The translations under genes and the position numbers were made by a program. From Opitutales bacterium (GTDB lineage: Bacteria; Verrucomicrobiota; Verrucomicrobiia; Opitutales; PNEW01), in assembly GCA_965219535.1 (NCBI GenBank), contig CBDCNV010000002.1, forward strand, positions 1,020,001 to 1,052,000: a DNA stretch of 32,000 nt. The letters are read 5' to 3'. The notes below the pieces were generated by a model, which was not told the origin of the DNA, made no database searches, and was given only the letters and a program-made list of their open reading frames with translations. Numbering within the stretch: position 1 is the stretch's first letter; each line of letters begins with the position of its first letter. This document shows positions 3,697-32,000 of this stretch, one piece after another.

Positions 3697-3698
3697 TT

Positions 3699-4532
3699 AT
3701 GTCATTCACACGTGAAGAGATTATTGAACGACTGAAAAAAAACATAGATGCGGGATTACCCATAATAGGTGCGGGTGCCGGTACAGGTATAAGCGCGAAG
3801 TTTGAAGAAGCGGGTGGTGTCGATCTAATCGTGATATATAATAGCGGTCGATTTCGTATGGCGGGAAGAGGGTCTCTTTCCGGGGCCATGCCCTATGGAG
3901 ATGCTAATGCGATTGTCATGGAAATGGCAGGTGAAGTGCTCACCATAGTTAAAGATACACCTGTTCTTGCCGGCGTTTGCGGAACGGACCCTTTTCGGCA
4001 AATGGATTTATTTTTGCAAGAGGTGAAAGCGATTGGATTTTCCGGAATACAGAATTTTCCCACGGTTGGATTATGTGACGGCTTTTTCCGTCAGAATCTG
4101 GAAGAAACAGGGATGGGTTACGATCTTGAGGTAGAGATGATTGGCAAAGCGCGAAAGATGGACCTTTTTACCTCACCCTACGCATTTAATGTTGAGGAAG
4201 CAAAAGCGATGACCCAGGCGGGTGCGGATGTCGTTGTTGCGCACATGGGATTAACGACGAAAGGAGCAATTGGAGCATCGACAGCTGTGACATTAGAAGA
4301 TTCGCCAGCAAAGGTTCAGGAAATTTGCGAAGTGGCTAAGAACATAAATTCAGAAGTCATAGTTTTGTGTCACGGTGGACCCATCGCTATGCCTGAAGAT
4401 GCGGAATATGTTCTGCAGCGAACAGAGGGAGTCGACGGATTTTACGGTGCATCAAGTATGGAACGCCTGCCTGTTGAGACGGCGATAAAGGACCAAATGT
4501 CTCAGTTCAAGGCCATTCGATTTAAAAAATAA
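3699..4532 (+). CDS. Phosphoenolpyruvate hydrolase-like TIM-barrel protein (Tm-1 C-terminal-like)
   Basis: The strings [77 protein letters not shown] and [11 protein letters not shown] match my recollection of this family closely. Confidence 0.75.
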
Positions 4533-8721: not shown

Positions 8722-9782
8722 GTATCAGGCCAGGTTCTTGAGGGAGAAATAAAAGACCCTTTGGTCTTATTGGCGAGGAGCCAATAGCGAGCCGGCGCGT
8801 CGGGGTCGCGATAACCGGAGGGTAAGAGAATTGTATTAATGGGAACACCGCTGAGAATTTGTTGTTCCGCCGCGGTGTACATATTTAATCGTTTAATCGG
8901 ATCATTACCATCGCCGCTAACGGAATCGCTTAATGTGGGCAAACCGTCGACGATGAGAATGATATTATCGGGAAGTGGATATATCTGCCGTGACTCCCAT
9001 AATGCCCGTTCCAGATTGGCTCCTCCCTGAGGGACGACCTGTTTCATCTGTGTCAGCACTTCGCTTATCGTTTCGCGATCATCGAGATTAAGCCATTGGT
9101 TGCGAAAATCTTCAACCATGGGGTGTGGTTCCCGGTTGAAATAATATAGCTGAAACTGGGTAGGTGGACGCATCGAACCCAGGAGCCATTCGACGGAACG
9201 CAGTACGCGTTGCCATTTAGGCGCTTGTCGTTTTTCCTCATCTGTATCTCCAAGTCGTTCAAGAATGGCATCCGTATCATCGTCAAGCATTCCTCCAGAT
9301 GCCTCGACGATGATTAATACGCGTTCCCCGTCCATTTTAAAATCGGTTAGATATTGTCTTTTTATATAATTAGGTATGGGTACAGGCACCTCTTCTTCAA
9401 TTGTCGGGATTTCATCAAATTCGCCGAGAAGGGTATCCTTAGACTCTTCAAGCTCGGCAAGTAAGGTGAGGAGTAACATTAAATCGTCATTTTTATCCTC
9501 AAGAATTTTTTCGAGCGTGATTTTTTCGGCGGTCAACTTCGACAATTGTGATTCGTTCTCTTCAAGAAGGCTGGCGAGAAGACGAAGGCGTGCGTCTTCA
9601 GCTTGAATATTTTTTTGTAATTTACCGAGATCAACACTTACATCAGAAAGTTGCTCATTACGGGCTTCTGATTTTTTTCCACTCGTGAGAACAAAAAGCA
9701 GAATGACAGCACCGAATCCGCAACATATGCAATCGAGGAAACTGACGCTAAATGCTTGAACTTGTCTCTTCCTTTTCGGCAT
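8718..9782 (-). CDS. Paralogous membrane-anchored coiled-coil vWA-like protein with an ExbD/TolR-like Asp TM helix (degenerate MIDAS)
   Basis: The N-terminus is MPKRKRQVQAFSVSFLDCICCGFGAVILLFVL, with Asp17 at codon 9732-9734. This is nearly identical to the TM segment of the downstream paralog. Aa ~40-125 are coiled coil. The vWA-like core reads VLIIVEASGGM (ExSxG in place of DxSxS) and IILIVDGLPT. Confidence 0.75.
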   Translation of the reverse strand: MPKRKRQVQAFSVSFLDCICCGFGAVILLFVLTSGKKSEARNEQLSDVSVDLGKLQKNIQAEDARLRLLASLLEENESQLSKLTAEKITLEKILEDKNDDLMLLLTLLAELEESKDTLLGEFDEIPTIEEEVPVPIPNYIKRQYLTDFKMDGERVLIIVEASGGMLDDDTDAILERLGDTDEEKRQAPKWQRVLRSVEWLLGSMRPPTQFQLYYFNREPHPMVEDFRNQWLNLDDRETISEVLTQMKQVVPQGGANLERALWESRQIYPLPDNIILIVDGLPTLSDSVSGDGNDPIKRLNMYTAAEQQILSGVPINTILLPSGYRDPDAPARYWLLANKTKGSFISPSRTWPDT

Positions 9783-9859
9783 GATCGCTGCTTTGTAATC
9801 CGAGGTTTTAGGTTTTCGTTAAGCCTGAACTTCAATGCTTAATAGAGGAGTGTAGACTC

Positions 9860-11365
9860 TCAAGAGGGATTATGAATAAGGAGCAATTCGACCAATGGTT
9901 CCTTATTTCCCAGGGTGATTGAATCACCGGTTGCTAAATATTGTGTGTTGGCGACAGGTTGTTTGTTGAGGCGTGTGGTGTCGGCATATTCCGTTTCGAT
10001 TTTTAAACCCTCGCGCGTAAAGTAAATGTGGCAGTGTTGTTTGGCAATGGCCTTATTATCTGAATTAATGCGGAGTCCATTTTGGTCGTTATCAATTTCG
10101 GTCCCTATGATAAAATGATCACCACTCAGGGGAACGGAGATTCCTTCATATACGATATGGGTTGGAAGGGGATGGGCTTTCGGGCGTGATTCCTTTGAGT
10201 CGACAGCGGCATCAGCCGGTAGTGCATTCTCCTCAGGATTTGAAACAGGAGTGTCAAATACTGATTCGTCAATGGGTATTTGAGTAAGAACAGGTGTCTG
10301 ATCAAGCGATTCCACGAGTGGGGTATCCACCGCAAAGGTGGCGCAACCTTTCGCCGCTGAAGCAATATCTAAATGAATGAGATTAAAATCCCTCCCTCCC
10401 TTTAGCTTATTTGAAAGACCAGGTACACGAGAGGCACGATCTGTCAGGTAGAGAGAGCAGGGTCCATCTCCAACAATTGAAGATGCTTTGCTTACGACCT
10501 GAACAATGGAATCGTTGACTGTATCGAGATCTCTTGCGAGGGAATCAAGAGTAACAACTATTTGGCGTGGTCGTTTTAGTCCACCCAGTTCGAGAGAACA
10601 TTCAGGTGCATAGCGTAATTCATCGATGAGGCGCCGTATTTGATTATAGAATGCCTGCTCGGTTTTTCCATCGTGGGTAACATCAAAAGCGGTCTGGCTT
10701 AAGAAGCGATTGGCTAGTTTTGGCATTAATTCATTTATAATATGAGCATAGCCCAAATCTGAGAAACGGACGATATGTTGTCTCTCAATTACCTCACCTA
10801 CTCTAATCACAGTTACGACGATAGTATATTGATGAATGTCAAGGTGGAGGGCAGTAAAAGGGCGTGTATCAATTGAAGGGAGATGGGGAATGATTGAAGC
10901 GCAGGCCATATCGACGATCCCGGCTAAAGGGATTTTTAAATCACGCGCCATGCTTAAGATTAACCCGATTTCCAATTCTTCCTCGTCATCCTCAATAGCG
11001 ATGTAATGACCCGGCAGAGCAAAAACAACTTTTTCAGCAGGGAGACCACTCCCATTTAATCGCGACCATAGGTGTTTTAAATGATGGAATGCGAGTTCGG
11101 AAAATAATGGATTCTTTCCTCCTGCAGAAATAATCGAGGGGCGAAGAGAGAGTTGATCCCAACAAGTATCAGTGACAATTCGCGGATGAATTCGTGAGAG
11201 GTTTTCAGCTTCCCGGCCGGCAAGGTAGTCGCTCCCATTAAAATAAATGAAACCCGGACTCGACGGGCCATCCGTTTCAAGTGGGACTAATCGCTCCTGC
11301 TCACCTACACGCGCCGCGGCAAGAAATCCTTCATCACAAAATTCCAGGCCGAGTGTATTAATCAT
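9860..11365 (-). CDS. Degenerate Hsp70/actin-fold (ASKHA-like) protein with a C-terminal FHA-like domain
   Basis: The Hsp70-like order of blocks is kept but the nucleotide motifs are eroded. GLEFCDEG replaces GIDLGTTNS, VVFALPGHY replaces ViTVPAYF, ALHLDIHQYTIVVTV replaces DLGGGTFDV, and LYLTDRASRVPGL replaces vLvGGstRiP. The C-terminal ~90 aa (HFIIGTE...IAKQHCHIYF...TTRLNKQPV...LATGDSITLG) have FHA-like spacing but lack the canonical GR/SxxH/NG residues. Confidence 0.6.
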   Translation of the reverse strand: MINTLGLEFCDEGFLAAARVGEQERLVPLETDGPSSPGFIYFNGSDYLAGREAENLSRIHPRIVTDTCWDQLSLRPSIISAGGKNPLFSELAFHHLKHLWSRLNGSGLPAEKVVFALPGHYIAIEDDEEELEIGLILSMARDLKIPLAGIVDMACASIIPHLPSIDTRPFTALHLDIHQYTIVVTVIRVGEVIERQHIVRFSDLGYAHIINELMPKLANRFLSQTAFDVTHDGKTEQAFYNQIRRLIDELRYAPECSLELGGLKRPRQIVVTLDSLARDLDTVNDSIVQVVSKASSIVGDGPCSLYLTDRASRVPGLSNKLKGGRDFNLIHLDIASAAKGCATFAVDTPLVESLDQTPVLTQIPIDESVFDTPVSNPEENALPADAAVDSKESRPKAHPLPTHIVYEGISVPLSGDHFIIGTEIDNDQNGLRINSDNKAIAKQHCHIYFTREGLKIETEYADTTRLNKQPVANTQYLATGDSITLGNKEPLVELLLIHNPS

Positions 11366-11392
11366 TATCTGAGGGAGAAAAAATTCAGGTTA

Positions 11393-12262
11393 TCAAGTAA
11401 TCGACATCTCGCTTTCCTCCTTAAAAGGGATCTTCATTACAGCGAGGAGTTGATTTCTGCAGTATTCTTCGGTTTCGAGTATGAGACTTTCTTGCCGGGA
11501 CTGCAAAAGGTGAATGAAATACATAAGAATAATACTGAGAAAAAGGGCAATCAACGTAGAGTTAAAAGCGAGACCGAGAGAATCAGTCACGCCTTGGATG
11601 TTGCCCCTTATCGCCTGGTCTGCCTTGGTCAATGCTTCTCCGATACCACGCACGGTACCGATAAATCCGACCGACGGGATCGCCCATGCCACGTAACGGA
11701 CGAGGGATAGCTCAGAATCCAGCCGGTCCGCTTCTGATTCTGATATTTCTCTCACCGCCTGAGAGACATCTTGAATGGAGTGCGAAGATTGAAACCTTCG
11801 AAGGGCGGTAAGCACGACACGGGGTAATAATTTATCTGCGTATTGCGGTATATTGGCGAAACGCGTTTCCACTTCTTTTGAGTGGGCAAGTGCTTCTTCA
11901 GGAATGATCCTTTCCCCCGTTTCTATATCCAATAAATTTTCATTTAAAATCGATTTTTCCTGCCAGACTTGGCGAAGTTTATAGATAACAATCATCATCG
12001 CCCAGACCATTAGGGTGAAACAGACCTGTTGCTCGTAATCTTTAATAATAACAAAAATTGTGCGTTCAGGTACGAAACCGGTATCCGATTGCTGAGCGGC
12101 TTTTAATGTATTGGCTATTTGGATTTTCGCGGCTTGCGCACGAATACCTAATTTGGGTAATTCATAGATAAAACCGATTAAGACGATGGAAATCAAAAGT
12201 CCGGCAAATTGGTAAATATTCTCTCTGGAAAAGAGGCTACTTTTAGAATTATTAGCTGCCAT
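11393..12262 (-). CDS. MotA/TolQ/ExbB-family proton channel (stator A-subunit-like)
   Basis: Four predicted TM helices, with a ~90-aa cytoplasmic insert between TM2 and TM3. The C-terminal signature is WAIPSVGFIGTVRGIGEAL...GLAFNSTLIALFLSIILMYF, matching the ExbB/MotA pattern aPllGLlGTV.Gm...AL.tTa.GL. It is first in a four-gene minus-strand operon. Confidence 0.8.
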   Translation of the reverse strand: MAANNSKSSLFSRENIYQFAGLLISIVLIGFIYELPKLGIRAQAAKIQIANTLKAAQQSDTGFVPERTIFVIIKDYEQQVCFTLMVWAMMIVIYKLRQVWQEKSILNENLLDIETGERIIPEEALAHSKEVETRFANIPQYADKLLPRVVLTALRRFQSSHSIQDVSQAVREISESEADRLDSELSLVRYVAWAIPSVGFIGTVRGIGEALTKADQAIRGNIQGVTDSLGLAFNSTLIALFLSIILMYFIHLLQSRQESLILETEEYCRNQLLAVMKIPFKEESEMSIT

Positions 12263-12594
12263 GGTAAATATTACTCGATCGGGTGACCTTATGAGTATCG
12301 TAAAAGAAATTATATTTCGTTAGATCGCATGCGGAAAGTTTAGTGCCAAAAAAGTTAATTTTTTACCGCCAATGATCGATCTCAGATGTCATAAATTGTT
12401 AATAATAAACGTTGACCCACGGAACATGTCAATTTTTCCCTTGTCTGTTAAGCTATTATCTTTTCAATTGCCAGTTCGTCTAGTTTTTACTTGAAAAAAG
12501 AAGGTTTCAGAGATAGAGTTTATGCGCTTATCTGCCATTAATAAATCAACTCGAAAATAGTTGCCTAAGCGATGAAATTGGAGGGGAATAATTT

Positions 12595-16149: not shown

Positions 16150-19100
16150 TCAGTGGCTGTTAGTATAATCGCGAAAATCCACGCGGAAAAGTACCGCGTA
16201 AAGCAATGGAACAATTCCAAGGACGAGGAGGGTGGCAAATAATAATCCAAAGATAATCGCCACCGACATCGGTTGAAAAGTCGGATTACCTCTAAAGTAG
16301 AGGGGAAGAATCCCTCCAATGGTCGTGACAGTTGTTAGAAGAATAGGGCGTAATCTGTTTAATGACGCTTCAACTATACTTTCTTGAGTAGAGAGACCCT
16401 TAATATCCAGGTTTATGCGAATGCGGTCGATTAGAATTATCGCGTTATTAACGACGATTCCAGTGAGAGAAACGACGCCGACAAGAGTCATAAATCCGAA
16501 AGGCTGTTTGGTGACAAGCAATCCGACAACTACCCCGATGAGTCCCATAGGAACGGCGCAGACAATAATAAAAGTTCTACGGAAGGATCGCGTTTGTCGA
16601 ATAAGCAGGAGGACAATCAGAAAGGCAGTCCAGGGAAGCTTATTTATAATAGACTGGTTAGCCTTGCTGGATTCCTCACTTTCGCCGCTGATCAAAACAC
16701 TGTAATCACTCCCCCAATTATTTTTTTGCTCTGCAATCCATTGCTTTAATTGAGTATCCACATCTTTAGCTTTGACCCCCTTCTGGATGTCGGCCCGCAC
16801 GGTTACCGTGCGCTGGAAATTTCTCCTCACGAAAGACGCTGTTTCACGTACTTCCTGGATTTCAGCAATATCTTTGAGGAGCACAGTCGTCCCACGTTTG
16901 ATTATTGAATGGATATTCAATGATTCAATTTTTTCAATCTCATTGTCCCTATCGACAGTGGCATGAACATTAATGGGGATGATGATATTTCCCTCGCGCA
17001 TCGTAGTGGCAGGGTACCCAGTTAGCAGCGACTGGAGAGATATCGCCACATCGGCATGAGTAATACTGGCGAGACTGGCTTTCGTTTCATCGATTACGAC
17101 TCGGTATTTTTTTACCGGTGGCCCCCAATCATCATGGATGTTGTAGGTGCCAACTATAGAGCGTAGTTTGTTTTTAACTTCATCGACGATGCGGAAAATG
17201 CCATCAACGTCTTCACCTGAAACGCGGGCTTTGATCGGGTATCCAACGGAAGGACCTGATTCTAGGGGACGCGCGCGAATTTGCGCCTCAGGAAAATTCT
17301 CGGCGCAATAGTTCTCAATAGAATGAATCATTTCGGGAATGATTTTAACCGAGGTGAGATTAAAAAGGAAATAAGCGTATTCAGGATTATATTCAACCGT
17401 TCGGTGATTAAGAATAAAGCGTGGAGCGTTCCGACCGACAAAAGTCGCCCAATTTGTGATACCTTCTCCTCCATTTTTTTCGGCTCGGAGATTTGCCTCT
17501 ACATAGGCGTCCACCGCGTCCACCGTTTTCTCTGTATGCTCAATCACCGTGCCCGCGGAAAATTCTATTTCCAGGGTAAATAAAGGGCGATCTGATGGCG
17601 GAAAGAAAATTTTAGGGACAAAGCGAAAACAATATAACGAACCCAAAAATAAAAGCAGAGTGAGGAAAAGAATTAGAAAGGGGCGTGGCAGCATCCACAG
17701 GAGAAGGCGATGATATAAGCGGTAACCTGAGTGGTCTAATAAGTTTTTTTCCTTCTGCGTTTTAACTTTGAATAGATAGACAGAAAGCAATGGGGTAAGG
17801 GTGAAGGCAAAAAAAGTGGAAGAGAGAAGAGTTATCGCAACGATGGTGAAGAGTGGAGAAACATATTCACCGGCAGTAGATTGGGCGAGATAGATGGGGA
17901 GAAACCCGGATAAAGTAGTCAAGGCCGCGGTAATAAGAGGGCCATGTAATTCATAAGTAGATTCCTCAGCTGCGGAGACGGGAGTTTCGCCGCGCTCACG
18001 TAAGGTAAGGATGCGCTCGGATATGACAATGTGAGTGTCGACGATGATACCAAAGACGAGAATAAAGGCGGCAAGCGCGACGAGGTTTATATTTATGCCA
18101 AGACCCAGCATGATGACGAGTGCAGTAAGAAAAGTTAGCGGCATCATACTGGCGACTATAGACCCGGTGCGCAGCCCGAGGGTAATCATCAGGATTAACA
18201 TTACGATGATGAGACTTTGCACAAGATTACCAAAAAAGGCGTTCACGCGATTCGAGACACGCCCCGGTTCAAATGCAATGAGTTCTAATTCTACACCTGC
18301 GGGCACTTTATCCTTTAATGTGGTGAGCAGAGATTTAACTTCACGACCCATTTTTTCGATATTGCCACCTTTTCTTATGGACACCGCCAGACCGAGGGCG
18401 TTATTTCCCGAAGATTTCATAATGCTGTCCGGTGGTTGCTGAACCTGGCGTTTAACTTCTACCAAATCCCCTAAATAGTAGGACTCGTCATCATCGGGGA
18501 GGGAAACCTCCAGGTTTTCTATATCTTCTACCGAGGATAACTCACCTGCCAATTCGACCGCATAGCGCGAATTCCCCTCCCGGATACTCCCTCCCGGGGC
18601 GATAACATTTTGCGCTTCAAGATATTTGATTAAATGGTAAGGGGAAATTCCCGCATCAGCCATATCCGAATCAAAAAAATTAACCATGACACTTTCACTT
18701 CGATCACCCAAAGTGATGACTTTGGAAACATCGTCGAGGCGGAGTAACTCATCATGAACAGTCTCGGATACTTCTCTTAATTTAGTATAGGAAGAGTTTC
18801 CAGAGACGGTAACGATGGTGCCGAATACTTCACCGTACTCATCATTAAGGACCGGTACACCAACACCGTCTGGTAAATCACCTTTGACTCGATCTATCTT
18901 GCGGCGCAACCGATTCCATATAGGACGAATATCCTGGTAGCGGTCTTGAATTTTAACTAAAATCACCGAAGCATTTTTGCGCGATATGCAATGAATGGTT
19001 TCTACCTCCGGGACTTCGCGTACCGCCTCTTCAATTTTTCGTGTAACGAGACTTTCCACTCGTTGAGCAGAAGCGCCCAAGTATTTCGTAACAATTAACG

Positions 19101-19233
19101 AATAGCGAAATACAACGGGAGGGTCTTCGGTTCGCGGCAGTTGCCAAAAAGCAATTATTCCGCCAATAAATAAAAAAAGAGAAATCAACAGCGTAAATCG
19201 CGGTTCTCTCAGGGCAAAATCAGTAAGCTTCAT
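16150..19233 (-). CDS. RND-superfamily efflux permease (AcrB/MmpL-like), with no adjacent adaptor or outer-membrane factor gene
   Basis: It is 1027 aa with the typical RND layout: TM1, a large periplasmic loop, a TM cluster, a second loop and a second TM cluster. Conserved stretches include VSIRKGGN, FGIIVDTHIVISE, TTLSGFLPI and GIVVNNAIILID. Confidence 0.9.
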   Translation of the reverse strand: MKLTDFALREPRFTLLISLFLFIGGIIAFWQLPRTEDPPVVFRYSLIVTKYLGASAQRVESLVTRKIEEAVREVPEVETIHCISRKNASVILVKIQDRYQDIRPIWNRLRRKIDRVKGDLPDGVGVPVLNDEYGEVFGTIVTVSGNSSYTKLREVSETVHDELLRLDDVSKVITLGDRSESVMVNFFDSDMADAGISPYHLIKYLEAQNVIAPGGSIREGNSRYAVELAGELSSVEDIENLEVSLPDDDESYYLGDLVEVKRQVQQPPDSIMKSSGNNALGLAVSIRKGGNIEKMGREVKSLLTTLKDKVPAGVELELIAFEPGRVSNRVNAFFGNLVQSLIIVMLILMITLGLRTGSIVASMMPLTFLTALVIMLGLGININLVALAAFILVFGIIVDTHIVISERILTLRERGETPVSAAEESTYELHGPLITAALTTLSGFLPIYLAQSTAGEYVSPLFTIVAITLLSSTFFAFTLTPLLSVYLFKVKTQKEKNLLDHSGYRLYHRLLLWMLPRPFLILFLTLLLFLGSLYCFRFVPKIFFPPSDRPLFTLEIEFSAGTVIEHTEKTVDAVDAYVEANLRAEKNGGEGITNWATFVGRNAPRFILNHRTVEYNPEYAYFLFNLTSVKIIPEMIHSIENYCAENFPEAQIRARPLESGPSVGYPIKARVSGEDVDGIFRIVDEVKNKLRSIVGTYNIHDDWGPPVKKYRVVIDETKASLASITHADVAISLQSLLTGYPATTMREGNIIIPINVHATVDRDNEIEKIESLNIHSIIKRGTTVLLKDIAEIQEVRETASFVRRNFQRTVTVRADIQKGVKAKDVDTQLKQWIAEQKNNWGSDYSVLISGESEESSKANQSIINKLPWTAFLIVLLLIRQTRSFRRTFIIVCAVPMGLIGVVVGLLVTKQPFGFMTLVGVVSLTGIVVNNAIILIDRIRINLDIKGLSTQESIVEASLNRLRPILLTTVTTIGGILPLYFRGNPTFQPMSVAIIFGLLFATLLVLGIVPLLYAVLFRVDFRDYTNSH

Positions 19234-20005: not shown

Positions 20006-23000
20006 ATGATTAACCAAGGGAAATGCCCTATCGCGATTATTGGAATCGGTTGCAGATTTCCTGGTGGAGCAACTGATTCTGCTTCATTCTGGAAGTTTTT
20101 ACGCGACGGCGGCAACGCAATCGTCGAAGTCCCTGAAGATCGTTGGAATCTTGATCAATATTATGACCCAAATCCCAATTTAGCGGGCAAAATGATCACT
20201 CGCTGGGGAGGATTCCTGAATCCTATTGACCAGTTCGACGCTAAATTTTTTGGCATTTCCCCCCGTGAAGCCTTGAGGATGGATCCTCAACAGCGATGGC
20301 TGCTGGAAGTTGCCTGGGAAGCTATGGAAGACGGAGGTCAATCGCCCGATCGGATGGCGGGGACACGGACGGGAGTATTCGTTGGCATATCGAGTAATGA
20401 TTATGCGAATATTCAGATGAAAAGTCCTAATGATGTTGATGTGCATACCAACAGTGGGAGCACGCTTAGTATTGCATCAGGAAGGATTTCCTACCTCTTT
20501 GATTTAAAAGGCCCGAGCCTCTCGGTCGACACCGCCTGTTCATCGGCACTGGTTGCTGTAAATCTTGCCTGTAATAGTATCTGGGATGGACAGTGTGACA
20601 CCGCCCTTGCGGGTGGAGTCAATGCACTGATTACGCCCGATTCAACGATCGGATTCAGTAAAGCTTCCATGCTCTCACCTGATGGCAAGTGTTATGCCTT
20701 TGATGACCGGGCAAATGGTTATGTTCGAGGAGAGGGAGCAGGAATCATTGTTCTCAAACCGCTCGATCAAGCGCTCGAGGATAAAGATCCAATTTATTCG
20801 GTAATTCGCGCAAGTGTCGTTAATCAAGATGGTCGCACAAGCGCGATGACCGTACCCGGTCAAATTTCCCAGGAAGCCATGCTTTATGAGGCTTATAAAC
20901 AAGCGGGAATTTCACCGCAAAAAGTTTGCTACATGGAAGCGCACGGTACGGGAACACCGGTTGGCGATCCAATTGAAGTTCTGGCTTTAGGTAATGTTTT
21001 AGCTGAAGGAAGAAAAGCAGGTGAGGAGTGCGTGATCGGGTCGGTTAAAACGAATATTGGCCATTTAGAATCTGCTTCTGGCATCGCTGGATTAATCAAA
21101 GCTGCTTTAATCCTGAAATATGGGGAGATTCCTCCAAATCTGAACTTTGAAAATCCTAATCCAAATATACCTTTTGAAAAACTTCGATTACGGGTTCCGA
21201 CAAAGTTGGAACCGTTGAATGGCAATGGATCGGGTCCAGCTGTAGTCGCCGTTAATTCTTTTGGCTTTGGAGGGACAAACGCCCACGTGGTGTTAGAAGA
21301 AGCACCTGCGGCAGCGAAAAGGCGTAAAAAAATTAAAAAAGGTAATTCCTCTGAGCCCTACCTTATCCCTCTCTCGGGAAGAGGACAACAGTCATTAAAA
21401 AAATATGCTGAATCTCTGGTAGAATTGATTTCAGGTCAATCGAATGGCAAGGAAGTGTCGCTTCCAGATTTAGCGCACACTGCGAGTATCGGCAAGGGCC
21501 ATCATGACCATCGCCTGGCGCTGGTTGCTGTTTCGGAAAATGAAGTCGTAGAAAAGCTCAACGACTATCTGGCAGAAACTAAGGTCAAGGGCCTTGTCAC
21601 TGGAAGAGCTAAAACAGAAAATAATAGCGAAATTGTATTTATATTTACCGGTCAGGGTTCGCAATGGTGGGCAATGGGCCGGGAGCTATTGAAAAATGAT
21701 CCGATCTTTAGGAAAAAAGTTGAAAAGTGTGACCGACTTTTAAGTAAATATGCTTCCTGGTCTCTAATTAAAGAATTATCACGGGATGAGGCGAGCTCTA
21801 GAATAGACGATACAGCAATCGCTCAACCGGCCATTTTCGCCTTACAAATAGCTTTAGCTGATTTATGGAAGGCGAGAGGGGTGACACCGACTGCTGTGAT
21901 AGGGCATAGTGTAGGTGAAGTTGCTGCCGCTTACTGTGCGGGTATTTACACGCTCAATGATGCGATTAGAATTATTTATCACCGCAGTCGTTTACAAGGG
22001 ACGACTCGTGGTTCGGGCCGTATGGTGGCGGTTGCTATTTCGTCCGAAAAGGCCAAGGAATTAATTCAAGGTTACGAAAATCAAATTGCGATAACCGCTA
22101 TTAACAGTCCCGGGTTGGTAACCTTAGCAGGGGAAACTGAAATTTTAGAAACTTTAATCGAGCCGCTTGAAAAAGAACAGGTATTCGTTCGTTGGTTGAA
22201 TGTAGACTATGCTTTCCATACCCACAAAATGGATCCTATTAAGGACGAATTAATTCAAGTCCTAAAAGGGATCAAGACGCGCACCGCGAAAATCCCATTT
22301 TATTCTACAGTTACTGGTGATGTTCTCGACGGTAAGAAACTGAATGCCGGTTATTGGTGGCGCAATGTCAGGGAAGCCGTTCTTTTTGGTCCCGCGATTG
22401 AAAAAATAATGACTAAGGATCATGAGCTTTTTCTCGAGCTTGGGCCCCATCCGTCTCATTCCAGTTCCGTTATGGAGTGCCTGGCACATATTGGTAAAAA
22501 AGGAATGGTCCTGCCATCCTTGCGGCGCAAAGAATCGGATCACCAGATCATACTCGAATCTCTGGCTGCTCTATATACCCAAGGCTATCCCATAAATTTA
22601 GATGCGTTATACAGCAAGGTAGGTAACCTTATTCATCTACCTTCTTATCCCTGGGAGCACGAACGATTCTGGTTAGAATCGGCCATTTCCGAGGACCACC
22701 GATTAGGTTCAATTATTCACCCACTGCTCGGTAAAAAATTGAATACCCCAAGTCCAACTTGGGAATGTGAATTGGACCCTCTAGCCCTGCCTTATCTGGC
22801 AGATCACCGACTTCATGATTCCATGGTTTTTCCCGGCTCTGCCTATGTGGAGACCGCGCTTGCGGCGCTTAATGAGCTCTATCCAAATGAATCTTATGTT
22901 ATTGAGGATGTAAAAATCCTTAAGGGTCTGTTTATGTCAGAAGAAGACCTCATTACTCTTCAATTTACCTGTGATGAATCTGATGATTCATTTAAAATTT

Positions 23001-26000
23001 ATAGTTCAACTTACACCTCTACCGGAGAATGGGAAGTTCACGCCGAAGGTCGGTTTCAGAAGCTCTCGCTGCGCGAACCCGGCAAGTTGGACCTTGAACA
23101 TTTAAAATCCACTTTGGAAGACGAGATAGATCACGCCAAAATTTATTCAGATTTCGATGATGTAGGTTATCAGTTTGGTCCCTGTTTTAAAGAAGTACAA
23201 AAAATATGGAGAAAAGACGGCGAATCCTTAGCCGAGATACAAGTTCCAGATGCGATTCTAGAAAATATAGATAAATATTATTTCCAACCTGCGGTCCTGG
23301 ATGCCTGCTTTCAAGGGGGCAAGGAAACAAGATTTAAGGATGAAAAGAGAAAAGCGCGTGATAATTTTTTCATGCCCATTGCTCTCAAACGCTGTCGTTT
23401 TTATAAAAGTCCAGGTACGCATCTCTGGTGCCACACGTTATTAATAAATGACGAAGAAGACCGGGTTGAATACGACCTTGAGATTACTGATGACGATGGC
23501 TCAATCATCGCGGAGATCAAAGGTTTTCGTGTTCAACGTGTAGATCAGTCCGAGTCAAAAACAGAGGATGATTTTGAAAACTGCCTCCTCATGTTTAAGT
23601 GGGCGCTCTCAGGATTACCGGGAGCACGTCTTGACCCAGTCGAACTCCTGAGTCCCACCCAGATCGTAGAAAAATTAGTTCCTGAAATTACCCCCAACTA
23701 TGAAAAATATCAACTAGAAGGCTATGTTGAGGACTTCATTCCTCGAATGGAAGATCTGAGCTTACATTTTGTTCTCACGGCCTTGATCAAGCTGGGTTGG
23801 AGCCCGGAAAAGGGTGATCTGGTATCGAAAGAAGGTTTAATTGAACAGTTGGGTATAAAGGAGGAGCATTTTCGTTTATTTAATCATTCTCTTTTTGACG
23901 TTTTGATAAATGAAAAGGTGGTTCGGGCGACACCAAAAGGAGAGTGGGAGTTTTCAAAATTTCCAGAGAAACAGAATTTAGATAAACTTTGTAAAGATCT
24001 AAAATCAGATTTCCCCCACCTTTCAGCGGAAATGGCATTACTGATCGATTGTGGTTATGTCTTAGCCGAAGTCCTTTCTGGAAAGACCGATCCCCTTGAT
24101 GTTGTTTTTCCAGCTGGCGATCAGGGAAAACTTGAAAAGTTTTATAAGTTTTCTTCAGATTTTCAGGCCTATAACAGTATGTTTCAGACGGCTATTTCCT
24201 CGATCGCTAAAAATTTTTCGGGAAGCAGGCCACTTCGCATTTTGGAAATCGGAAGTGGAACGGGTTCATTGACTGAAAGTTTGCTTCAAGTATTACCGGC
24301 TGATCGTACTGAATATTTCTTTACCGACATTTCGCCATTGTTCACGTCAACAGCTAAGGAAAAATTTAAGGAATATGATTTTGTTGAGTACCAGCTTCTC
24401 GATATTGAAAAATCACCGTCTGAACAGAATTTTGACCTTCATTCTTATGATTTAGTATTAGCCACTAATGTTCTGCACGCCACTGCTGATTTAAAACAAA
24501 CTTTACGTCACATCAATCAACTGATGACCGAAGAGGGCATATTGATGTTTCTCGAGGTCACCTCACGTCGTCTTTTTCTTGATCTGGTTTTTGGTCTGCT
24601 ACCCGGTTGGTGGAGATATACCGATACTGATTTAAGGTCTACTTCTGCATTGCTGTTGCGCCCGGAGTGGGAAAATCTGCTCAATGAAGTAGAATTTCGT
24701 GACGTAAAATCTTTTGTCAATACACATCTACAAGACAATTCCGTTCAGACATTATTAATGGCTAATGCTTCTGAACGATTGCTGGAGGAAGAAATGGTTG
24801 AATCCAGCGATGCAGTTGCGAATGAAGATAAATTCTGGTTAATTTTCGCTGATCAAAACGGTCACGCTGAGACTCTGTCTAATCATTTGAAAGAGAAGGG
24901 CAGAAATTGTGTGATGATTCACGAAGGTGAAAGCTTTGTTCAGGAAAATGAAAACAGCTATAAGATTAATCCTGAGCAGTTGGAAGACATGGAGAAGCTA
25001 TTTGCTTCCCTCAACTTTGAGCGGAATGTTATGCAGGGCGTAATTCATATGTGGAGCCTAGATCATCCCACCGTTGATATGACTACACCTGAAAACCTCG
25101 AAGAGGCTCAGCAATCAGGTTGTCTGAATGTATTAAATTTGATTCAAACGCTTGTTAAATACGAACCATCACCGGCACCACGTGTTTGGTTGATCACCCA
25201 GGGTGCTCAGTCGGTAAGGGAAAACGAATCAATCGAGCGCATTGTTTCGGCTCCGTTAATGGGTCTCGCTCGCGTGGCAAACAATGAGCATAATGATTAT
25301 CATTGGACAGTAATAGATCTGGAAACATCAACTACTCCGGATGACCTGGGATTTTTGGTCGACGAAGTCTTTTCTTCAGACGACGAAATTGAAATCGCAT
25401 ACCGCGGTGAGGAGCGTTACGTCAATCGTCTGGAAAAGGTTTTGACCGATGAACTTCCCGCGCGTACGAAGGATGCGGTGAGACACGACGGGGTACTTCC
25501 GTACCGTCTGGAAATACCAACCCCTGGCATTTTAAATAATCTGCAATTGAATGAGACACAGCGCAGATCTCCAGATTCGAAGGAAATCGAAATTATAGTT
25601 GAGGCGGTTGGATTGAATTTCCGTGACGTGATGAAAGTCATCGGTATGTATCCCGGTAATAGCAGGGATTTGAAGTGGCTGGGTGACGAATGTTCAGGGA
25701 CCATTGTTACGGTTGGTAAAGATGTCACTGAATATCAGGTTGGAGATGATGTAGTTGGTATGGTACCCTATTGCTGCCGCTCTTATGCGACGGTTAATCA
25801 TGCATTAGTTTTTCCCAAACCGTCCGATCATACTTTCGAGCAAGCGGCAACATTACCGATTGTATTCCTCACTGCCCATTACACATTGAATTATCTGGCC
25901 CATCTCCAAAAAGGAGAGAAAGTACTTATTCATGCGGGCGCAGGCGGTGTCGGTCAGGCTGCGATACAAATGGCTAAGCATTTGGGAGCTGAAATTTTTG

Positions 26001-29000
26001 CCACCGCGGGATCACCTGAAAAACGTGAATTCCTTAGAGGCCAGGGAATACAGCATGTGATGGATTCGAGGTCATTGGATTTTGCCGATGAAATCCTGGA
26101 AATTACCGAGGGTAAAGGGGTGGACGTCGTTTTAAATCAGTTAGCGGGCGACTTTATCACCAAAAGTCTATCTGTCCTCGCACCCTATGGAAGATTTTTA
26201 GAAATCGGTAAAGTAGATATTTATCAAAATTCGAAAATGGGGCTCGAGCCTTTTAAAAATAACTTGTCGTATTTTGCGGTTGATCTCTCGAAGCATATTG
26301 AAGAGCGACCAGAGTTTATCACTACGATGTTGCGTGAAATATCGGAGATGTTTGAAGAAAAGAAACTAAAGCCGCTGCCGATCAAATCTTTTCCCATCAC
26401 CGAAGCAGTCGACGCATTTCGTTATTTTGCTCAAGCAAAACACATTGGCAAAAATGTACTCACTTTAGCGGCGGATTCTATCCCTGTTGGTTTGCCTTCC
26501 AATCAGGAGACACTATTCCGCGCCGATGGGACATACCTTATTACGGGTGGACTTGGCGGATTTGGTCTGGAAGTAGCCAAGTGGATGATAAAATTTGGTG
26601 CGAAGAATTTATTACTTATGGGCCGTTCGGGAGCGTCGACTGAAGTAGCGGTTGAAGCGCTACAGCATATGCGTAACGACGGAGCCCGAATTGAAGTAGC
26701 TAAAGCCGATGTCGTCAGCAGTGATGATGTTAAACGCGTGCTCAGTAAGATCGATCAAGAAATGCCACCATTAAAAGGTGTGATCCATGCCGCCATGGTT
26801 CTGGATGATGGTTTCCTCGTTCAAATTGACACTGAAAAATTTAGAAAGGTTCTGCGGCCAAAGATGGTTGGTGCCTGGCAATTACATCAACAAACGAAAC
26901 ATTTGCCTTTGGACTTGTTCGTTCTTTTTTCATCGGCTTCTTCACTGATAGGTCCCAATGGCCAGGGAAACTACGCCTCGGCAAATTTCTTTCTCGATGC
27001 TTTAGCGCATTATAGAAACGCCCAAGGTCTTCATGCATTAACGATTAACTGGGGTGCATTGTCCGAGGCCGGCTATGTCGCTCGAAATGAAAACGTAGCT
27101 AAATATCTCGATCTCCTTGGATTGGAAAGTTTCACCCCGCAAGAAGCACTCAGCATTTTGGCTAATATAATACCAAAAAATCCGGTCCAGTTGGGTGCAT
27201 CACGTATTAACTGGATGGCTATCTCTAAGCTGAATCCATCGATGGTAAATTCGCCATTGTTTTCGAAGGTCATTAATCATGATGCCCTCATAGATAGTAC
27301 CGGTGCCCATGCTCATTCATTCCGCCCACAACTACTAGCGGCTCCGTCTGAAGATCGTCATAAGATAGTAGAGGATTATATAAGTGAACAGGTTGCCCAG
27401 GTTTTCGGTACCACGGCGGATAAAATTGATCGTACCACCCCACTAACGACAATCGGGCTCGATTCCTTAATGGCTATAGAATTGATGAATCGCCTGGAAT
27501 CCAATTTGGGGATTAGTTTGCCCATGGGTAAATTTCTCCAGGGTCCGAACATTTCACAACTGGCCGCACCCGTCCTCGAATTACTACTCAAATTTGATCC
27601 CAGTTCGGAGGCATCGAATATATCTCGAGTTGTCACTGCAGGGGAAGAATTGATGGCCTTTCCCTTATCCTATGGGCAACGCGCGCTCTGGTTTTTAAAT
27701 CGCCTCGCCCCAAGTAGTTCAGCTTATAATCTTGTCTTTAGTTCGTTAATCACCCCTTACGTCGACATCGATATTATGAAAGAGGCCTTTGCCAGTCTCT
27801 TTCATGCACATCCCATGCTCGACATCGTCTTCTCTACGCAAGACGGAAAGCAGATACAAACATTGCAAAAAGGGCGGAGTATCGATTTTAGAGAACACGA
27901 TACCACGCATCTAAGTGATGGTGAACTTAAAGAACTGCTCGTAGAACATGCGCATAAGCCGTTTGATTTACAAACGGGTCCCGTCTGTCGCTTGGAGCTT
28001 TTCCGCACGGCCAAGGGGTCTCATGTAGCGCAACTTGCGATGCACCATATTGTCTCTGATGCATGGTCGGTGGTGCTTATTCTTAACCATTTGATGGAAA
28101 CTTATTTTGCCCTGAAAGCTGGGCGAAAACCTGATCTCCAGATACCTGACCATAGATATTCAGATTACGTACGCTGGCAGCAGGATATGCTGAAAAGCCC
28201 GGAAGGTGAACGTTTGGCCAAATACTGGGAGGAATACTTGGAGGAAGCTCCAATGACCCTTGATCTTCCTACCGATCACCCGCGTCCACCAGTGCAGACA
28301 TTCAATGGTGCAACCTTAGGTTTCAAACTTGATACAGATCTAACAAATGAAGTGCTGTCTTTGGCGGAAAATAAAAATGTCACCTTATATACCACTCTTT
28401 TGTCGGCATTTAAAATTTTAATGCATCGCTATTGTGACCAGGAGGAGATTCTAGTGGGGAGCCCACTACACGGGCGCATTAACCAGGAGTTCCATCACCT
28501 CGTCGGCTACTTTGTCAATCCCGTGGCATTACGCAGTAGCATAGGTGACGATCCTTCATTTTCCGATTACTTGGATCGCACCAATCAAACGGTAATTGGA
28601 GCGTTAGAAAATCAGAATTATCCCTTCCCGCTACTCGTTGATCGTTTAAAGCTAAAACGCGACCCCAGTCGTTCACCAATCTTTCAAGTCAGCTTTGCGA
28701 TGGAACGCATTCCAGGTTTTGATGAACAGGGCATTGCCGTATTTCTCATCGGTCAAGGTGGTCATCAATTCAAAGCTGAGGATATGAATATCGAGTCAAT
28801 GGATCTAAATTTACGCATGTCGCAATTTGAGATTACACTCGTGGTGGAAGAAGCAGGGGGAAATATTTACGGATGCTGGCAATATAATCGTAATCTCTTC
28901 AAAGAGGAAACGATTGATCGTCTGAACGAATTTTATAAACAACTGCTCAAAGAAATTATTTCCCAACCCAATAAAAGTATTTCAGAGCTCAATATCCTTT

Positions 29001-32000
29001 CCAAAAAAGAAGAAAAGCAGCTACTCGTTGAATGGAACGCAACTACTGCTGATTACCCCGTCGATGCCTGCCTGCATCATCTCATCACTGAACAGGCGAC
29101 AAAATGCCCTCAAGCCACGGCTATTGTATCCGGTGATAATTCTCTGACTTATGAAGAATTGGAGAGAAAATCTAACGGCTTGGCCATGGTCTTGCATGAA
29201 AAGGGTGTTGGACCGGATTCACCGGTTGGCTTATATCATGATCGGTCTTTAAATATGGTTGTTGGATTGCTGGGCATTCTTAAAGCTGGCGGTTGTTATG
29301 TGCCTTTAGATCCAGATTTTCCACCCTACAGGTTGGAGCTGATGCTCAAGAATGCTCAACCTTCCGTTGTCGTAACACAGAGTGAACTGGCGGACACATT
29401 ACCAGCTGGTAATTGGGAATCTGTTTTTATTGAAGAAATAGATGAAGCGGAATCTGCACCTCATGTCGATGGGCTAACCCCTGAGTCACTCGCTTATATC
29501 ATTTATACCTCTGGGTCTACAGGTAAACCGAAGGGTGTGGAAATTCCGCATCGCGCTTTAGTGAATTTCCTCAGCTCGATGCAGTCTGAACCTGGTATTA
29601 AGCAGGAGGATAAGCTCTTAGCCGTAACGACGCTCTCTTTTGACATCTCAGGATTGGAAATATACCTGCCGCTCATATCAGGGGCGCAAATTATTCTGGC
29701 CTCACGAATGGAAGCGATGGATGGTCGCCGATTAGCCGATCTCATTGAAAGCTCAAATCCAACCGTGATGCAAGCGACACCAGCTGCTTGGAAGATGTTA
29801 CTGGATTCTGGTTGGGTGGGAAAAGAAAGTTTAAAAGTTCTATGTGGGGGAGAAGCCCTGCAACCAGAATTAGCCGATCAACTTTGCATGCATTGTGGAG
29901 AGGTTTGGAATCTTTATGGTCCAACTGAAACGACGATCTGGTCTACGGTAGCTAAAGTTGAAAAAAGAAGTGATGTAATTATGATTGGTCATCCGATCGC
30001 TAATACTAAAATTTACATATTAGATGAAAATCTGAAACCACTTCCTGCAGGATTTACCGGTCATCTCTACATTGGTGGTGACGGTCTAGCCCGAGGCTAC
30101 CATCATCAACCGGAGCTTACGGATGAGTCCTTTATCGAGCTGGCTATTTCCAGGGGTAAAACTGAACGTTTATATAACACTGGAGACTTAGCGCGCTATA
30201 CGATTAACGGATCCATTGAATGTATAGGACGCCGTGATTCTCAAATTAAATTACATGGTTACCGGATCGAGTTGGGCGAAATCGAGACCGTGCTTAATGC
30301 CCATCCAGTAGTAAGTAAAGCGGTGTTGCTTTTGCGTGATGATATGACAGGTGGTCCCAGTCTTGCTGCTTATATACAACCGACTGAAAATCACGATAAC
30401 ATCATTCCAGAATTGCGTACCTACCTTGGTGAGCGTCTGCCCCAGTACATGCAACCAGCGGCTTACATGGTCGTAGACGAGTTCCCCTATACACCTAACA
30501 AGAAGATAGATCGCAAGGCGCTTCCAATCCCATCCCTAAAGCGTTCCGATTTAGGGTCAGAATATGTCGCACCCCAGACGCCGACGGAGAAAATACTCTG
30601 TGATATTCTAAACCGGGCGTTTAAGAATGATAAGATTGGCATTCACGACAACTTTTTTGAATTAGGTGGCGATTCTCTCATGGCGGTTGAAATATTATCC
30701 AGTATTACCGCTGCCTTTAACCGTGAATTACCGATCGAAGTATTCCTTCGCAATCCCACAGTGGAAAGCCTGGGGCAGTTTTATGATCTTATTCCCGAAA
30801 GTATCGATGATCATTCGAACGGGTCTAACGGCAGTTCAAGTTTAGGTAAAGCTTCGGACTTAATTAAGAACAGCTATCTGGACATAGAACAGGTCAATGG
30901 GAAGAATGGCGATCGCACCGACCTTCCTCAGGTGGACGCCGTTGCGCTGGCTTATATACCCGATGCTTTCCTTCCGCTCACCGGTCTATCGAAAGATGAA
31001 ATATCACGACAATGGTTTCAACATCAGCCCTTTGTCAGCAATTACTATGAGACACCATTTGGAAGAATAGCCATCGTCATGCTTCCGCGGCTGGGTGCAG
31101 AGCTATACAAGGACCAGGAGCCACTTAGCGACAATATTTTAAGTTCGTTAAAACTAGCAGCTAAAATGGGTGCGAGTACTGTTTCGCTCACTGGGCTCAT
31201 TCCATCGGCTACGGATTATGGACGAAGTATTAAGCACTGGATCAATGGTCATGATAATTTACCGGCGATAACAACGGGTCATGCGACAACAACGGCAACA
31301 ATCGTGAAGACGATTACGGGAATGCTTGAGCAAACCGATCGCGACTTTGCTGATGAAAAAGTAGCCATTGTTGGTCTAGGGTCTATCGGGTATGCAACCT
31401 TGAGGCTCATGCTTGAAGTTATGCCTCATCCGCTTGAGCTTATCCTTTGTGATCTTTATCAGAAATCGGATAGTTTAGAGGAAATTAGAAATGAACTTGT
31501 CGAAAAACTTGGCTTTAATGGATCCATTCGTGTCGTAACCACTCGCGGGCGATTACCCGATGCCATTTATGACGCTTCATTTGTACTCGGCGCGAGCAAT
31601 GTGCCAGGGATCTTAGATATTAAACGGATAAGACCGGGGACTCTCCTCGTCGATGATTCGTTCCCTCCATGTTTCCGTTTATCCGATGCCATTAGGCGCA
31701 TCGAAGAACAACAGGATATTCTTTTTACCACAGGCGGGTTACTTAGGTGTTCGAAGGAAATCAAAGAGACGATTTATTTACCGGATGGAGCGGGTGAATT
31801 ATTTGCCAGCCTGGGTGTTGATAAAGTTCAGCGACTGGCAGGGCGCGATCCACGTGAAATTACTGGTTGTATCCTTTCCAGCTTATTAACCGGGCACGGT
31901 CCAGACATTCAAACCACTATCGGTCCAGTCGAAATCGAAGATTCGCTCGCCCACTATAAACTCCTCGAGAAACTAGAGCTCGAGGCGGCTCGACCGCAGT
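20006..32000 (+). CDS. Hybrid type I PKS-NRPS megasynthase, 3'-truncated by the window edge (about 3998 aa visible): KS-AT-DH-cMT-ER-KR-ACP-C-A-PCP-AAR-like
   Basis: I translated it by hand from the ATG at 20006. An in-frame TAA lies at 19964-19966 upstream, and I saw no stop to nt 31999. The ORF is missing from the supplied track. All antisense track ORFs between 20180 and 31764 are short shadows. Domain motifs are listed in the sub-features. Confidence 0.92.
   Translation, partial: [3998 protein letters not shown]
20021..21300 (+). other. PKS ketosynthase (KS) domain
   Basis: [25 protein letters not shown] (active Cys178, codon 20537-20539); [37 protein letters not shown]. Confidence 0.92.
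21630..22560 (+). other. PKS acyltransferase (AT) domain, malonyl-type motifs
   Basis: [31 protein letters not shown] (Ser635, codon 21908-21910); [10 protein letters not shown]. The xAFH form is associated with malonyl-CoA selectivity, as opposed to YASH for methylmalonyl. Confidence 0.85.
22709..23550 (+). other. PKS dehydratase (DH) domain
   Basis: [28 protein letters not shown] (HxxxGxxxxP with G replaced by D; His934, codon 22805-22807); [15 protein letters not shown] (DxxxQ). Confidence 0.85.
23990..24760 (+). other. SAM-dependent C-methyltransferase (cMT) domain
   Basis: Motif I is [12 protein letters not shown] (nt 24239-24274). Also present: [13 protein letters not shown] and EGILMFLE. 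The position between DH and ER is as in FAS-like/highly reducing PKSs. Confidence 0.85.
25498..26470 (+). other. PKS enoylreductase (ER) domain
   Basis: [47 protein letters not shown] (NADPH site); AKHIGKNVL. Confidence 0.88.
26527..27090 (+). other. PKS ketoreductase (KR) catalytic domain, B-type (LDD motif)
   Basis: [30 protein letters not shown] (LDD); [34 protein letters not shown] (Tyr2323, codon 26972-26974). The region about 24800-25440 probably forms the KR structural subdomain. Confidence 0.85.
27356..27595 (+). other. Acyl carrier protein (ACP) domain
   Basis: [18 protein letters not shown] (phosphopantetheinyl Ser2487, codon 27464-27466). Confidence 0.88.
27645..28990 (+). other. 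NRPS condensation (C) domain
   Basis: C1 is [13 protein letters not shown]. C3 is [10 protein letters not shown] (codons from 28043). Also [30 protein letters not shown] and [13 protein letters not shown]. Confidence 0.88.
29030..30530 (+). other. NRPS adenylation (A) domain with a glycine specificity code
   Basis: Motifs A1-A10 are all present: [107 protein letters not shown]. The Stachelhaus positions, read by aligning to GrsA-PheA from memory, give D-I-L-Q-L-G-L-I-W-K. Confidence 0.85.
30563..30795 (+). other. Peptidyl carrier protein (PCP/T) domain
   Basis: [19 protein letters not shown] (Ser3557, codon 30674-30676). Confidence 0.88.
30940..32000 (+). other. C-terminal Rossmann domain resembling acyl-ACP reductase (AAR), a putative non-canonical reductive release domain; may continue past the window
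   Basis: [34 protein letters not shown] (GxGxxG, nt 31361-31390); [45 protein letters not shown] (Cys3915, codon 31748-31750). There is no TE GxSxG and no SDR-type R-domain TGxTGFLG motif. Confidence 0.55.

Follow-up and report, generated by a model that had tools for sequence, protein, structure and literature searches.

We analyzed a 32,000-nucleotide stretch of the genome of an Opitutales bacterium (assembly GCA_965219535.1, contig CBDCNV010000002.1, positions 1,020,001 to 1,052,000 of the forward strand), here called the window, which ends within the gene of a hybrid polyketide synthase-nonribosomal peptide synthetase (PKS-NRPS) megasynthase. The last domain of the megasynthase, which follows the terminal peptidyl carrier protein (PCP), is predicted to have the fold of the acyl-acyl carrier protein reductase (AAR), and it almost certainly belongs to the family of terminal amidation domains (TADs). 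With moderate confidence, we propose that this domain, composed of a macrodomain-like N-terminal lobe and a Rossmann C-terminal lobe, off-loads the finished chain as an N-acyl-glycinamide.

Domains of this class, including their AAR-like fold, the invariant cysteine, and their location at the end of NRPSs, were already described in publications of 2024-25. New in the present analysis are the verrucomicrobial context, in which one protein combines a PKS, a glycine-loading NRPS module, and a TAD; a DDSFPP variant of the nicotinamide loop; a conserved sulfotransferase partner; and rare fusions of a TAD to a thioesterase (TE) or to a reductase (R) domain.

The CarI TAD is the closest relative of the terminal domain

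The megasynthase open reading frame (ORF) runs past the end of the window, and the tail visible after its PCP, about 375 residues, has no significant Pfam match. In a phmmer search, five PDB entries (9E4S, 9E4U, 9E4X, 9E50, and 9E56) matched this tail at E values of about 2e-87. The five entries were deposited as "Amino acid adenylation domain protein," and Foldseek lists them under the title "TAD from Carmabin Biosynthetic Pathway" (released 2025-02-26; complexes with NAD, NADH, and dephospho-CoA). BLASTP showed that the CarI TAD is 42% identical to the tail over 356 aa (E 3e-101), and a family profile of 41 homologs of the tail domain matched 9E4S with an E value of 5e-164.

The structural comparison agreed with these searches. 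The AlphaFold2 model of the tail (mean predicted local distance difference test score, 92.8; predicted template modeling [TM] score, 0.92) matched 9E4S in Foldseek with a TM score of 0.92, a root mean square deviation of 1.7 Å, and an E value of 2e-48. The CarI TAD and the window domain also share their place directly after the last PCP, a size of about 400 aa, two lobes, the TTG and GxGxxG motifs, the NAD-selecting Asp, the Asp-Asp-Ser residues of the nicotinamide loop, and a helix that begins at an invariant Cys.

The TADs were described by Rankin et al. (bioRxiv 10.1101/2024.10.28.620694), who reported that the CarI (carmabin), VatR (vatiamide), and HcaD (hectoramide) assembly lines end in a domain of about 400 aa and not in a TE, that the products of all three are C-terminal primary amides, that the TAD crystal structure is AAR-like, and that 757 TAD homologs occur across bacterial phyla, mostly at NRPS C termini. 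The domain was independently named a putative terminal amidation or ammonolysis domain in the hectoramide paper (PMC10949194). Since AAR-fold TADs were published with crystal structures in 2024-25, the window domain does not represent a new release mechanism; the original prediction, made from the DNA sequence alone, had known of no characterized assembly line with an AAR-fold release domain.

The window domain differs from the CarI system in several respects, among them its nicotinamide loop (DDSFPP, not DDSGPH). Its host is a verrucomicrobium (Opitutales) and not a marine cyanobacterium. It ends a one-protein line with the order ketosynthase (KS), acyltransferase (AT), dehydratase (DH), C-methyltransferase (cMT), enoylreductase (ER), ketoreductase (KR), acyl carrier protein (ACP), condensation (C), glycine-specific adenylation (A), and PCP, while the CarI TAD ends a multi-module NRPS. 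In addition, a sulfotransferase gene follows it in close relatives.

The AAR-fold domain is the last domain of the megasynthase

A scan of genome collections found a 99%-identical locus in an Opitutales (Verrucomicrobiota) genome (OY829953.1; locus L001). In L001 and in two 96%-identical proteins of 4,019 aa (P0001 and P0121), the stop codon lies 28 codons beyond the point at which the window ends. A 66%-identical protein (P0002) has its C terminus at the equivalent place, 39 residues past that point. With a stop codon so soon after the window end in its close relatives, the domain is terminal, and no TE or R domain follows it further downstream in the ORF in L001, P0001, P0121, or P0002.

A TE (PF00975) and an R domain of the short-chain dehydrogenase/reductase (SDR) type (PF07993, NAD_binding_4) would occupy the same place in an assembly line and do the same off-loading job, but their folds and motifs are unrelated to those of the window domain. 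When Pfam was run on the tail, neither was matched after the last PCP even at E<=10. The original prediction was therefore correct in that the megasynthase ends in an AAR-like domain replacing a TE or R domain, in that the motifs of both are absent, and in that a Ser/Gly/Asn linker follows the PCP, as seen in the translation.

The 28 residues beyond the window (L001, about 11114-11200) open with a Cys (ARPQ-C-EGFF). It matches the "LHC" Cys that is widely conserved near the C terminus of most TADs and is replaced in the DYSFPP group of TADs (RLQMQRYF).

The terminal domain is a distant homolog of AAR and of the PigE N-terminal domain

The AAR of Synechococcus elongatus used as a query is identical in sequence to PDB 6JZU chain A (341 of 341 residues). 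In a profile-sequence comparison with hhalign, the tail profile aligned with it at a probability of 91.7% and an E value of 7.8e-7 over 196 columns, and all four blocks that had been aligned with AAR in the original prediction were in register. In the Foldseek search of PDB, the AAR structures 6JZU and 6JZQ matched the tail model with an E value of 4e-17 and TM scores of 0.67 to 0.73, and the next fold families (formate, shikimate, and amino-acid dehydrogenases) reached TM scores of only 0.3 to 0.45. The model and structural search that had been suggested as a check thus recovered AAR, but the TAD was nearer.

By sequence only, the similarity of the tail to AAR is marginal. The AAR family model TIGR04058 scored 18.3 bits against a curated NCBIfam cutoff of 449.7, contrary to the expectation that a profile search would assign the tail to the AAR family. 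The E value of AAR was 0.18 when the family profile was compared with the PDB sequences, and Pfam produced only non-significant Rossmann matches on the tail. Judged by its model together with the hhalign alignment, the tail is a distant AAR homolog that has the AAR fold and shares ancestry with AAR.

AAR (TIGR04058; 6JZQ and 6JZU) and the window domain have in common the two-lobe fold with aligned Rossmann-lobe blocks, a catalytic Cys294 that is spatially matched to Cys3955 of the megasynthase via CarI Cys2238, and an acyl thioester on a carrier protein as the substrate; their identity is about 16 to 17%. AAR is a free-standing monomer that docks an aldehyde-deformylating oxygenase (ADO), uses NADPH, and produces an aldehyde. 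Unlike AAR, the window domain is fused to an NRPS, has an NAD(H)-type Asp, and belongs to a family that is correlated with amide products. No ADO-like gene was found among the neighbors of the megasynthase.

The best non-TAD sequence match to the window domain (E 1e-13 to 4e-11) was the AAR-like N-terminal thioester-reductase domain of PigE/HapE, which acts in secondary metabolism in the 2-methyl-3-n-amyl-pyrroline (MAP) pathway of prodigiosin (NF053554; 4PPM chain). The NCBIfam match to NF053554 was weak (E 1e-13; 50.5 bits against a cutoff of 850) and was confined to the reductase-like part, positions 65 to 277 of 837. The PigE domain has a conserved Cys (Cys296), as does the window domain. 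While the PigE domain is N-terminal and fused to a pyridoxal phosphate-dependent aminotransferase that consumes the aldehyde, the window domain follows a PCP at the C-terminal end, and neither the megasynthase ORF nor its neighborhood was found to encode a class III aminotransferase.

Active-site residues point to Cys3955 and to NAD(H)

CarI residues were numbered from the PDB chain, in which positions 138, 172, 198, 266, and 334 are Thr2042, Gly2076, Asp2102, Asp2170, and Cys2238, respectively. Table 1 shows that the TTG motif, the dinucleotide-binding loop, the NAD-selecting Asp, and the cysteine of the CarI TAD are all conserved in the window domain. In the AlphaFold model, helix 327-334 begins at Cys3955, like the Cys2238 helix in CarI.

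The nucleophile of AAR is Cys294 in the sequence MFACFAEAM (PMC8341465). Cys3915 of the megasynthase had been placed opposite this residue in the original prediction; we found that it aligns with AAR Cys271 and varies in the family, and that the counterpart of Cys294 is Cys3955. The C3915A mutant that had been suggested would consequently hit the wrong residue. In the CarI TAD, the invariant Cys2238 occupies the spatial position that Cys294 has in AAR; it is 4 Å away from C4 of the nicotinamide, and the PCP pantetheine can be cross-linked to it (10.1101/2024.10.28.620694). Conservation and analogy suggest that Cys3955 is the probable acyl-accepting nucleophile.

The CarI TAD binds NAD(H) and not NADP(H), owing to Asp2102, and binds NADH somewhat more tightly than NAD+ (10.1101/2024.10.28.620694). 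Because the Asp that excludes the 2'-phosphate in CarI is conserved as Asp3816, the sequence predicts that the window domain depends on NAD(H) rather than on NADPH, the reductant named in the original prediction. An Asp that is stacked on the nicotinamide, conserved as Asp3884, has been argued to favor NAD+ (10.1101/2024.10.28.620694).

The nicotinamide loop (31652-31675) reads VDDSFPPCF in the window and in P0002, DDSGPHCF in CarI-type TADs, and DYSFPPSF in other verrucomicrobial TADs. The sub-clade of the window retains the cyanobacterial-type Asp and has the verrucomicrobial-type Phe-Pro-Pro.

The domain family is widespread and mostly C-terminal

A phmmer search over 1.84 billion cluster representatives (clusters at 50% identity) returned 922 relatives at E<=1e-3, of which 478 were found at E<=1e-30. 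Of the 150 best representatives among the 478, 147 have no more than a few dozen residues between the end of the domain and the C terminus of the protein. These proteins are 400 to 5,000 aa long, and the relatives that were inspected directly were NRPSs or PKS-NRPSs.

The AAR-fold release domain is thus widespread (478 clusters), yet the copies of Pfam and NCBIfam that we searched contain no model for the TAD family. As a result, genome-mining tools leave the domain blank or call it "amino acid dehydrogenase." Database labels of its members include "predicted amino acid dehydrogenase" (JGI), "amino acid adenylation protein," and "hypothetical."

In one relative (P0025; L008, 7556-8989), the TAD is a protein of its own that starts with a TubC-type docking domain, and its gene directly follows that of a two-module NRPS with an oxidase domain. 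This arrangement suggests that a trans-acting version of the TAD exists.

Proposed release of the chain by the terminal domain

In the mechanism that we favor, the single PKS-NRPS protein would make a reduced, C-methylated acyl chain and condense it with glycine. The pantetheine arm of the PCP would enter the NAD tunnel of the TAD, and the N-acyl-glycyl group would pass to Cys3955 by transthioesterification, as the AAR analogy and the CarI cross-linking suggest. A nitrogen nucleophile would then resolve the acyl-enzyme to a primary amide, a step suggested by the product correlation in the three cyanobacterial pathways. The downstream sulfotransferase may modify the product, and the adjacent efflux pump may export it.

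Several observations weigh against amide release. Amide formation by any TAD has never been reconstituted in vitro, and neither NAD(H) nor metals, ammonia, or any one of the 20 amino acids brought about substrate release from the CarI and VatR TADs (10.1101/2024.10.28.620694). AAR and the PigE N-terminal domain, which represent the other two functionally studied branches in the superfamily, are thioester-to-aldehyde reductases (PMC8341465). The CarI, VatR, and HcaD domains are mutually 85 to 95% identical, whereas the window domain is only 42% identical to CarI, and its nicotinamide loop reads DDSFPP in place of the DDSGPH of CarI (Gly to Phe and His to Pro).

The locus and the wider family provide further difficulties. 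A conserved nitrogen-donor gene (for an aminotransferase, a glutaminase, or an NAD synthetase) was found neither in the upstream part of the window nor in the flanks of L001 and of L006, the locus of a 66%-identical TAD. A fully reduced N-acyl-glycinamide would offer the conserved sulfotransferase no obvious group to sulfate. In two proteins (P0211 and P0170) among the best 150 of the 478 representatives, the domain is non-terminal, in the order PCP-TAD-TE, and in a third protein (P0213) the TAD is directly followed by a canonical SDR-type R domain (NAD_binding_4). The TTG and ITGC motifs are intact in all three. Such fusions are awkward for a TAD that is a self-sufficient amidating release domain and equally for one that is a simple thioester reductase; no reference to them came up when the TAD preprint was searched for the terms "thioesterase" and "reductase domain."

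An AAR-type reductive release, in which the chain on Cys3955 is reduced by NADH to an N-acyl-aminoacetaldehyde and maybe further to an alcohol that the neighboring enzyme sulfates, appears unlikely, although much can be said for it. The fold and ancestry are common to AAR and the window domain, and aldehyde formation from a thioester is catalyzed by the PigE N-terminal domain, which is closer in sequence (E 1e-13). The 4-Å distance between nicotinamide C4 and the Cys thiol in CarI and the somewhat tighter binding of NADH would also suit such a reduction. With amidation unreconstituted, the TAD authors themselves considered a route through an aldehyde (10.1101/2024.10.28.620694). The lack of a conserved nitrogen-donor gene near the locus is consistent with reduction, and an alcohol product would give the conserved sulfotransferase an acceptor. 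On the other hand, all three TAD pathways with known products yield amides, NADH triggered no release from the CarI and VatR TADs, the equivalent of Asp3884 has been argued to favor NAD+, and the R domain of P0213 would be redundant if the TAD itself were a thioester reductase. Of the original prediction, the AAR fold and the distant homology have stood, while aldehyde release has become a minority reading, as the pathways of the closest relatives yield primary amides.

A narrower form of this alternative, which we consider rather doubtful, concerns the verrucomicrobial sub-clade of the window. This sub-clade, with its DDSFPP loop, glycine-loading terminal module, and tightly linked sulfotransferase (conserved down to 54% identity), may not amidate, and NADH-dependent reduction to N-acyl-glycinal or N-acyl-ethanolamine could be followed by O-sulfation. 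If true, such reductive release would give the TAD family its first demonstrated catalytic activity and would add a third, non-SDR route by which chains are released reductively.

It is similarly improbable that the domain is not a release catalyst at all and performs NAD-dependent tailoring or gatekeeping on the PCP-bound chain, with water, ammonia, or a trans-acting enzyme effecting release. The TE or R domain that follows an intact TAD in P0211, P0170, and P0213 and the absence of release by the CarI and VatR TADs in vitro are in line with such a role. However, nothing follows the domain in the megasynthase ORF, and neither L001 nor L006 has a gene for a TE or an R domain nearby; the role fits the locus poorly because nothing else there could release the chain. 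The terminal position in nearly all of the best 150 representatives and an invariant, pantetheine-reachable Cys, the hallmark of covalent acyl transfer, also argue against it.

The JGI label and weak SbnB and 2-hydroxyacid dehydrogenase matches might point to the chance fusion of a generic Rossmann dehydrogenase that is unrelated to AAR (shikimate, amino-acid, or ornithine-cyclodeaminase type). This reading is ruled out by the hhalign alignment to AAR and by Foldseek. The SbnB and 2-hydroxyacid dehydrogenase matches are non-significant (E 0.01 to 0.3), such folds fall well below AAR and the TAD in TM score, and the N-terminal lobe and the invariant Cys are common to TAD and AAR only; the absence of a conserved Cys had been named in the original prediction as a sign of another Rossmann family.

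The single biochemical study of TADs obtained no turnover. For the amide release that we favor as well as for its alternatives, the window member may suit experiments better than the cyanobacterial TADs, as it ends a self-contained one-protein line. Since the last building block is glycine, an N-acyl-glycyl-pantetheine substrate mimic would be easy to make, and the sulfotransferase partner offers an independent handle on the functional group of the released product.

Organization of the megasynthase

The Pfam scan gave the domain order KS-AT-DH-cMT-ER-KR-ACP-C-A-PCP ahead of the tail (Table 1). At the ten specificity positions of the A domain, located in the sequence from its motifs, the residues are DILQLGLIWK, which corresponds to the glycine code (Stachelhaus code), in agreement with the glycine-loading terminal module of the original prediction.

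Table 1. Features of the megasynthase and the adjacent efflux pump gene in the window
Feature	Position	Strand	Basis and remarks
RND (resistance-nodulation-division; AcrB-type) efflux pump, divergent from megasynthase	16150..19233	-	PF00873, E 6e-144
PKS-NRPS megasynthase ORF	20006..32000	+	ORF scan and translation; ATG at 20006, 3,998 aa visible, runs past window end
KS, from residue 8	20027..21151	+	PF00109 and PF02801, aa 8-382
AT-DH-cMT-ER-KR-ACP, fully reducing C-methylating PKS module	21635..27580	+	Pfam: PF00698, aa 544-851; PF21089/PF14765, 905-1183; methyltransferase, 1398-1540; ADH_N/ADH_zinc_N, 1859-2152; KR, 2175-2353; ACP, 2449-2525
NRPS condensation domain	27659..29026	+	PF00668, aa 2552-3007, E 5e-106
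Adenylation domain, predicted glycine-specific	29087..30505	+	PF00501 and PF13193, aa 3028-3500
Terminal PCP, serine in GGDSL	30593..30781	+	PF00550, aa 3530-3592
Ser/Gly/Asn-rich PCP-TAD linker	30782..30871	+	Translation
TAD-type (AAR-fold) terminal domain	30872..32000	+	aa ~3623-3998; last ~28 aa beyond window
TTG motif T3756-T3757-G3758 (ITTGHAT), lobe junction	31271..31279	+	CarI Thr2042-Thr2043-Gly2044 by alignment to 9E4X; family-conserved
GLGSIG dinucleotide-binding loop, G3790-G3795	31373..31390	+	CarI 2076-2081; alignment, motif table
Asp3816 (LILCD)	31451..31453	+	CarI Asp2102, responsible in CarI for the preference of NAD(H) to NADP(H); invariant column D189; 9E4X alignment
Nicotinamide loop D3883-D3884-S-F-P	31652..31666	+	CarI D2169-D2170-S-G-cisP2173; motif table
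Cys3915 (LLRCSKEI)	31748..31750	+	Aligned with non-catalytic AAR Cys271; Ser in CarI TAD; variable in 41 homologs
Cys3955 (ITGC)	31868..31870	+	CarI Cys2238, AAR Cys294; invariant column C328, 41 of 41 sequences

No loading module or docking domain was found by Pfam ahead of the KS, which opens at residue 8, and no second PKS gene lies near the megasynthase. The KS-AT-DH-cMT-ER-KR-ACP-C-A-PCP-X order is the layout of the fungal iterative highly reducing PKS-NRPS hybrids. Given this layout and the lack of a loading module, the megasynthase may work iteratively or may be primed by a fatty-acyl starter. The layout is also present in the verrucomicrobial metagenome contigs L006 and L007; the latter has cMT-ER-KR-ACP-C-A-PCP-TAD, as in the window.

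Genes near the megasynthase

In L001, a Sulfotransfer_3 gene (11226-12347, + strand; E 7e-33) begins 26 nucleotides after the megasynthase stop codon, at a place that lies outside the window. The sulfotransferase is retained in L002 (84% identity), L003 (70%), and L006 (54%), and in L006 all other flanking genes differ. L010 and L011, whose verrucomicrobial TADs are of the DYSFPP type, lack a neighboring copy. Its best relatives in PDB are mycobacterial "uncharacterized" sulfotransferases (2ZQ5 and 2Z6V), which give no clue to the acceptor. In a literature search for verrucomicrobial PKS-NRPS-sulfotransferase clusters, nothing relevant was found.

Downstream of the megasynthase, L001 carries the sulfotransferase, an acetyl-CoA synthetase, a DAO-family FAD oxidoreductase, and a tryptophanyl-tRNA synthetase. 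The DAO-family gene was rejected as a cluster member, since the sulfotransferase alone is retained in the 66%-identical relative. On the upstream side, the genes in the window are of housekeeping, envelope, or transport types. The position of the RND pump gene makes it a possible exporter for the cluster product. The functional unit looks like the PKS-NRPS-TAD protein and the sulfotransferase, perhaps with the pump.

An Rfam scan of the window gave no match. At 2467-4532 (+ strand), the window contains adjoining UPF0261 and phosphoenolpyruvate (PEP)-hydrolase-like genes, a recurring pair that is preceded by a zinc-type dehydrogenase-like ORF (1094-2431). Three consecutive ORFs of 331, 354, and 501 aa (7726-11365, - strand) have no Pfam match at E<=1e-5 and sit downstream of a MotA/ExbB-family gene (11393-12262).

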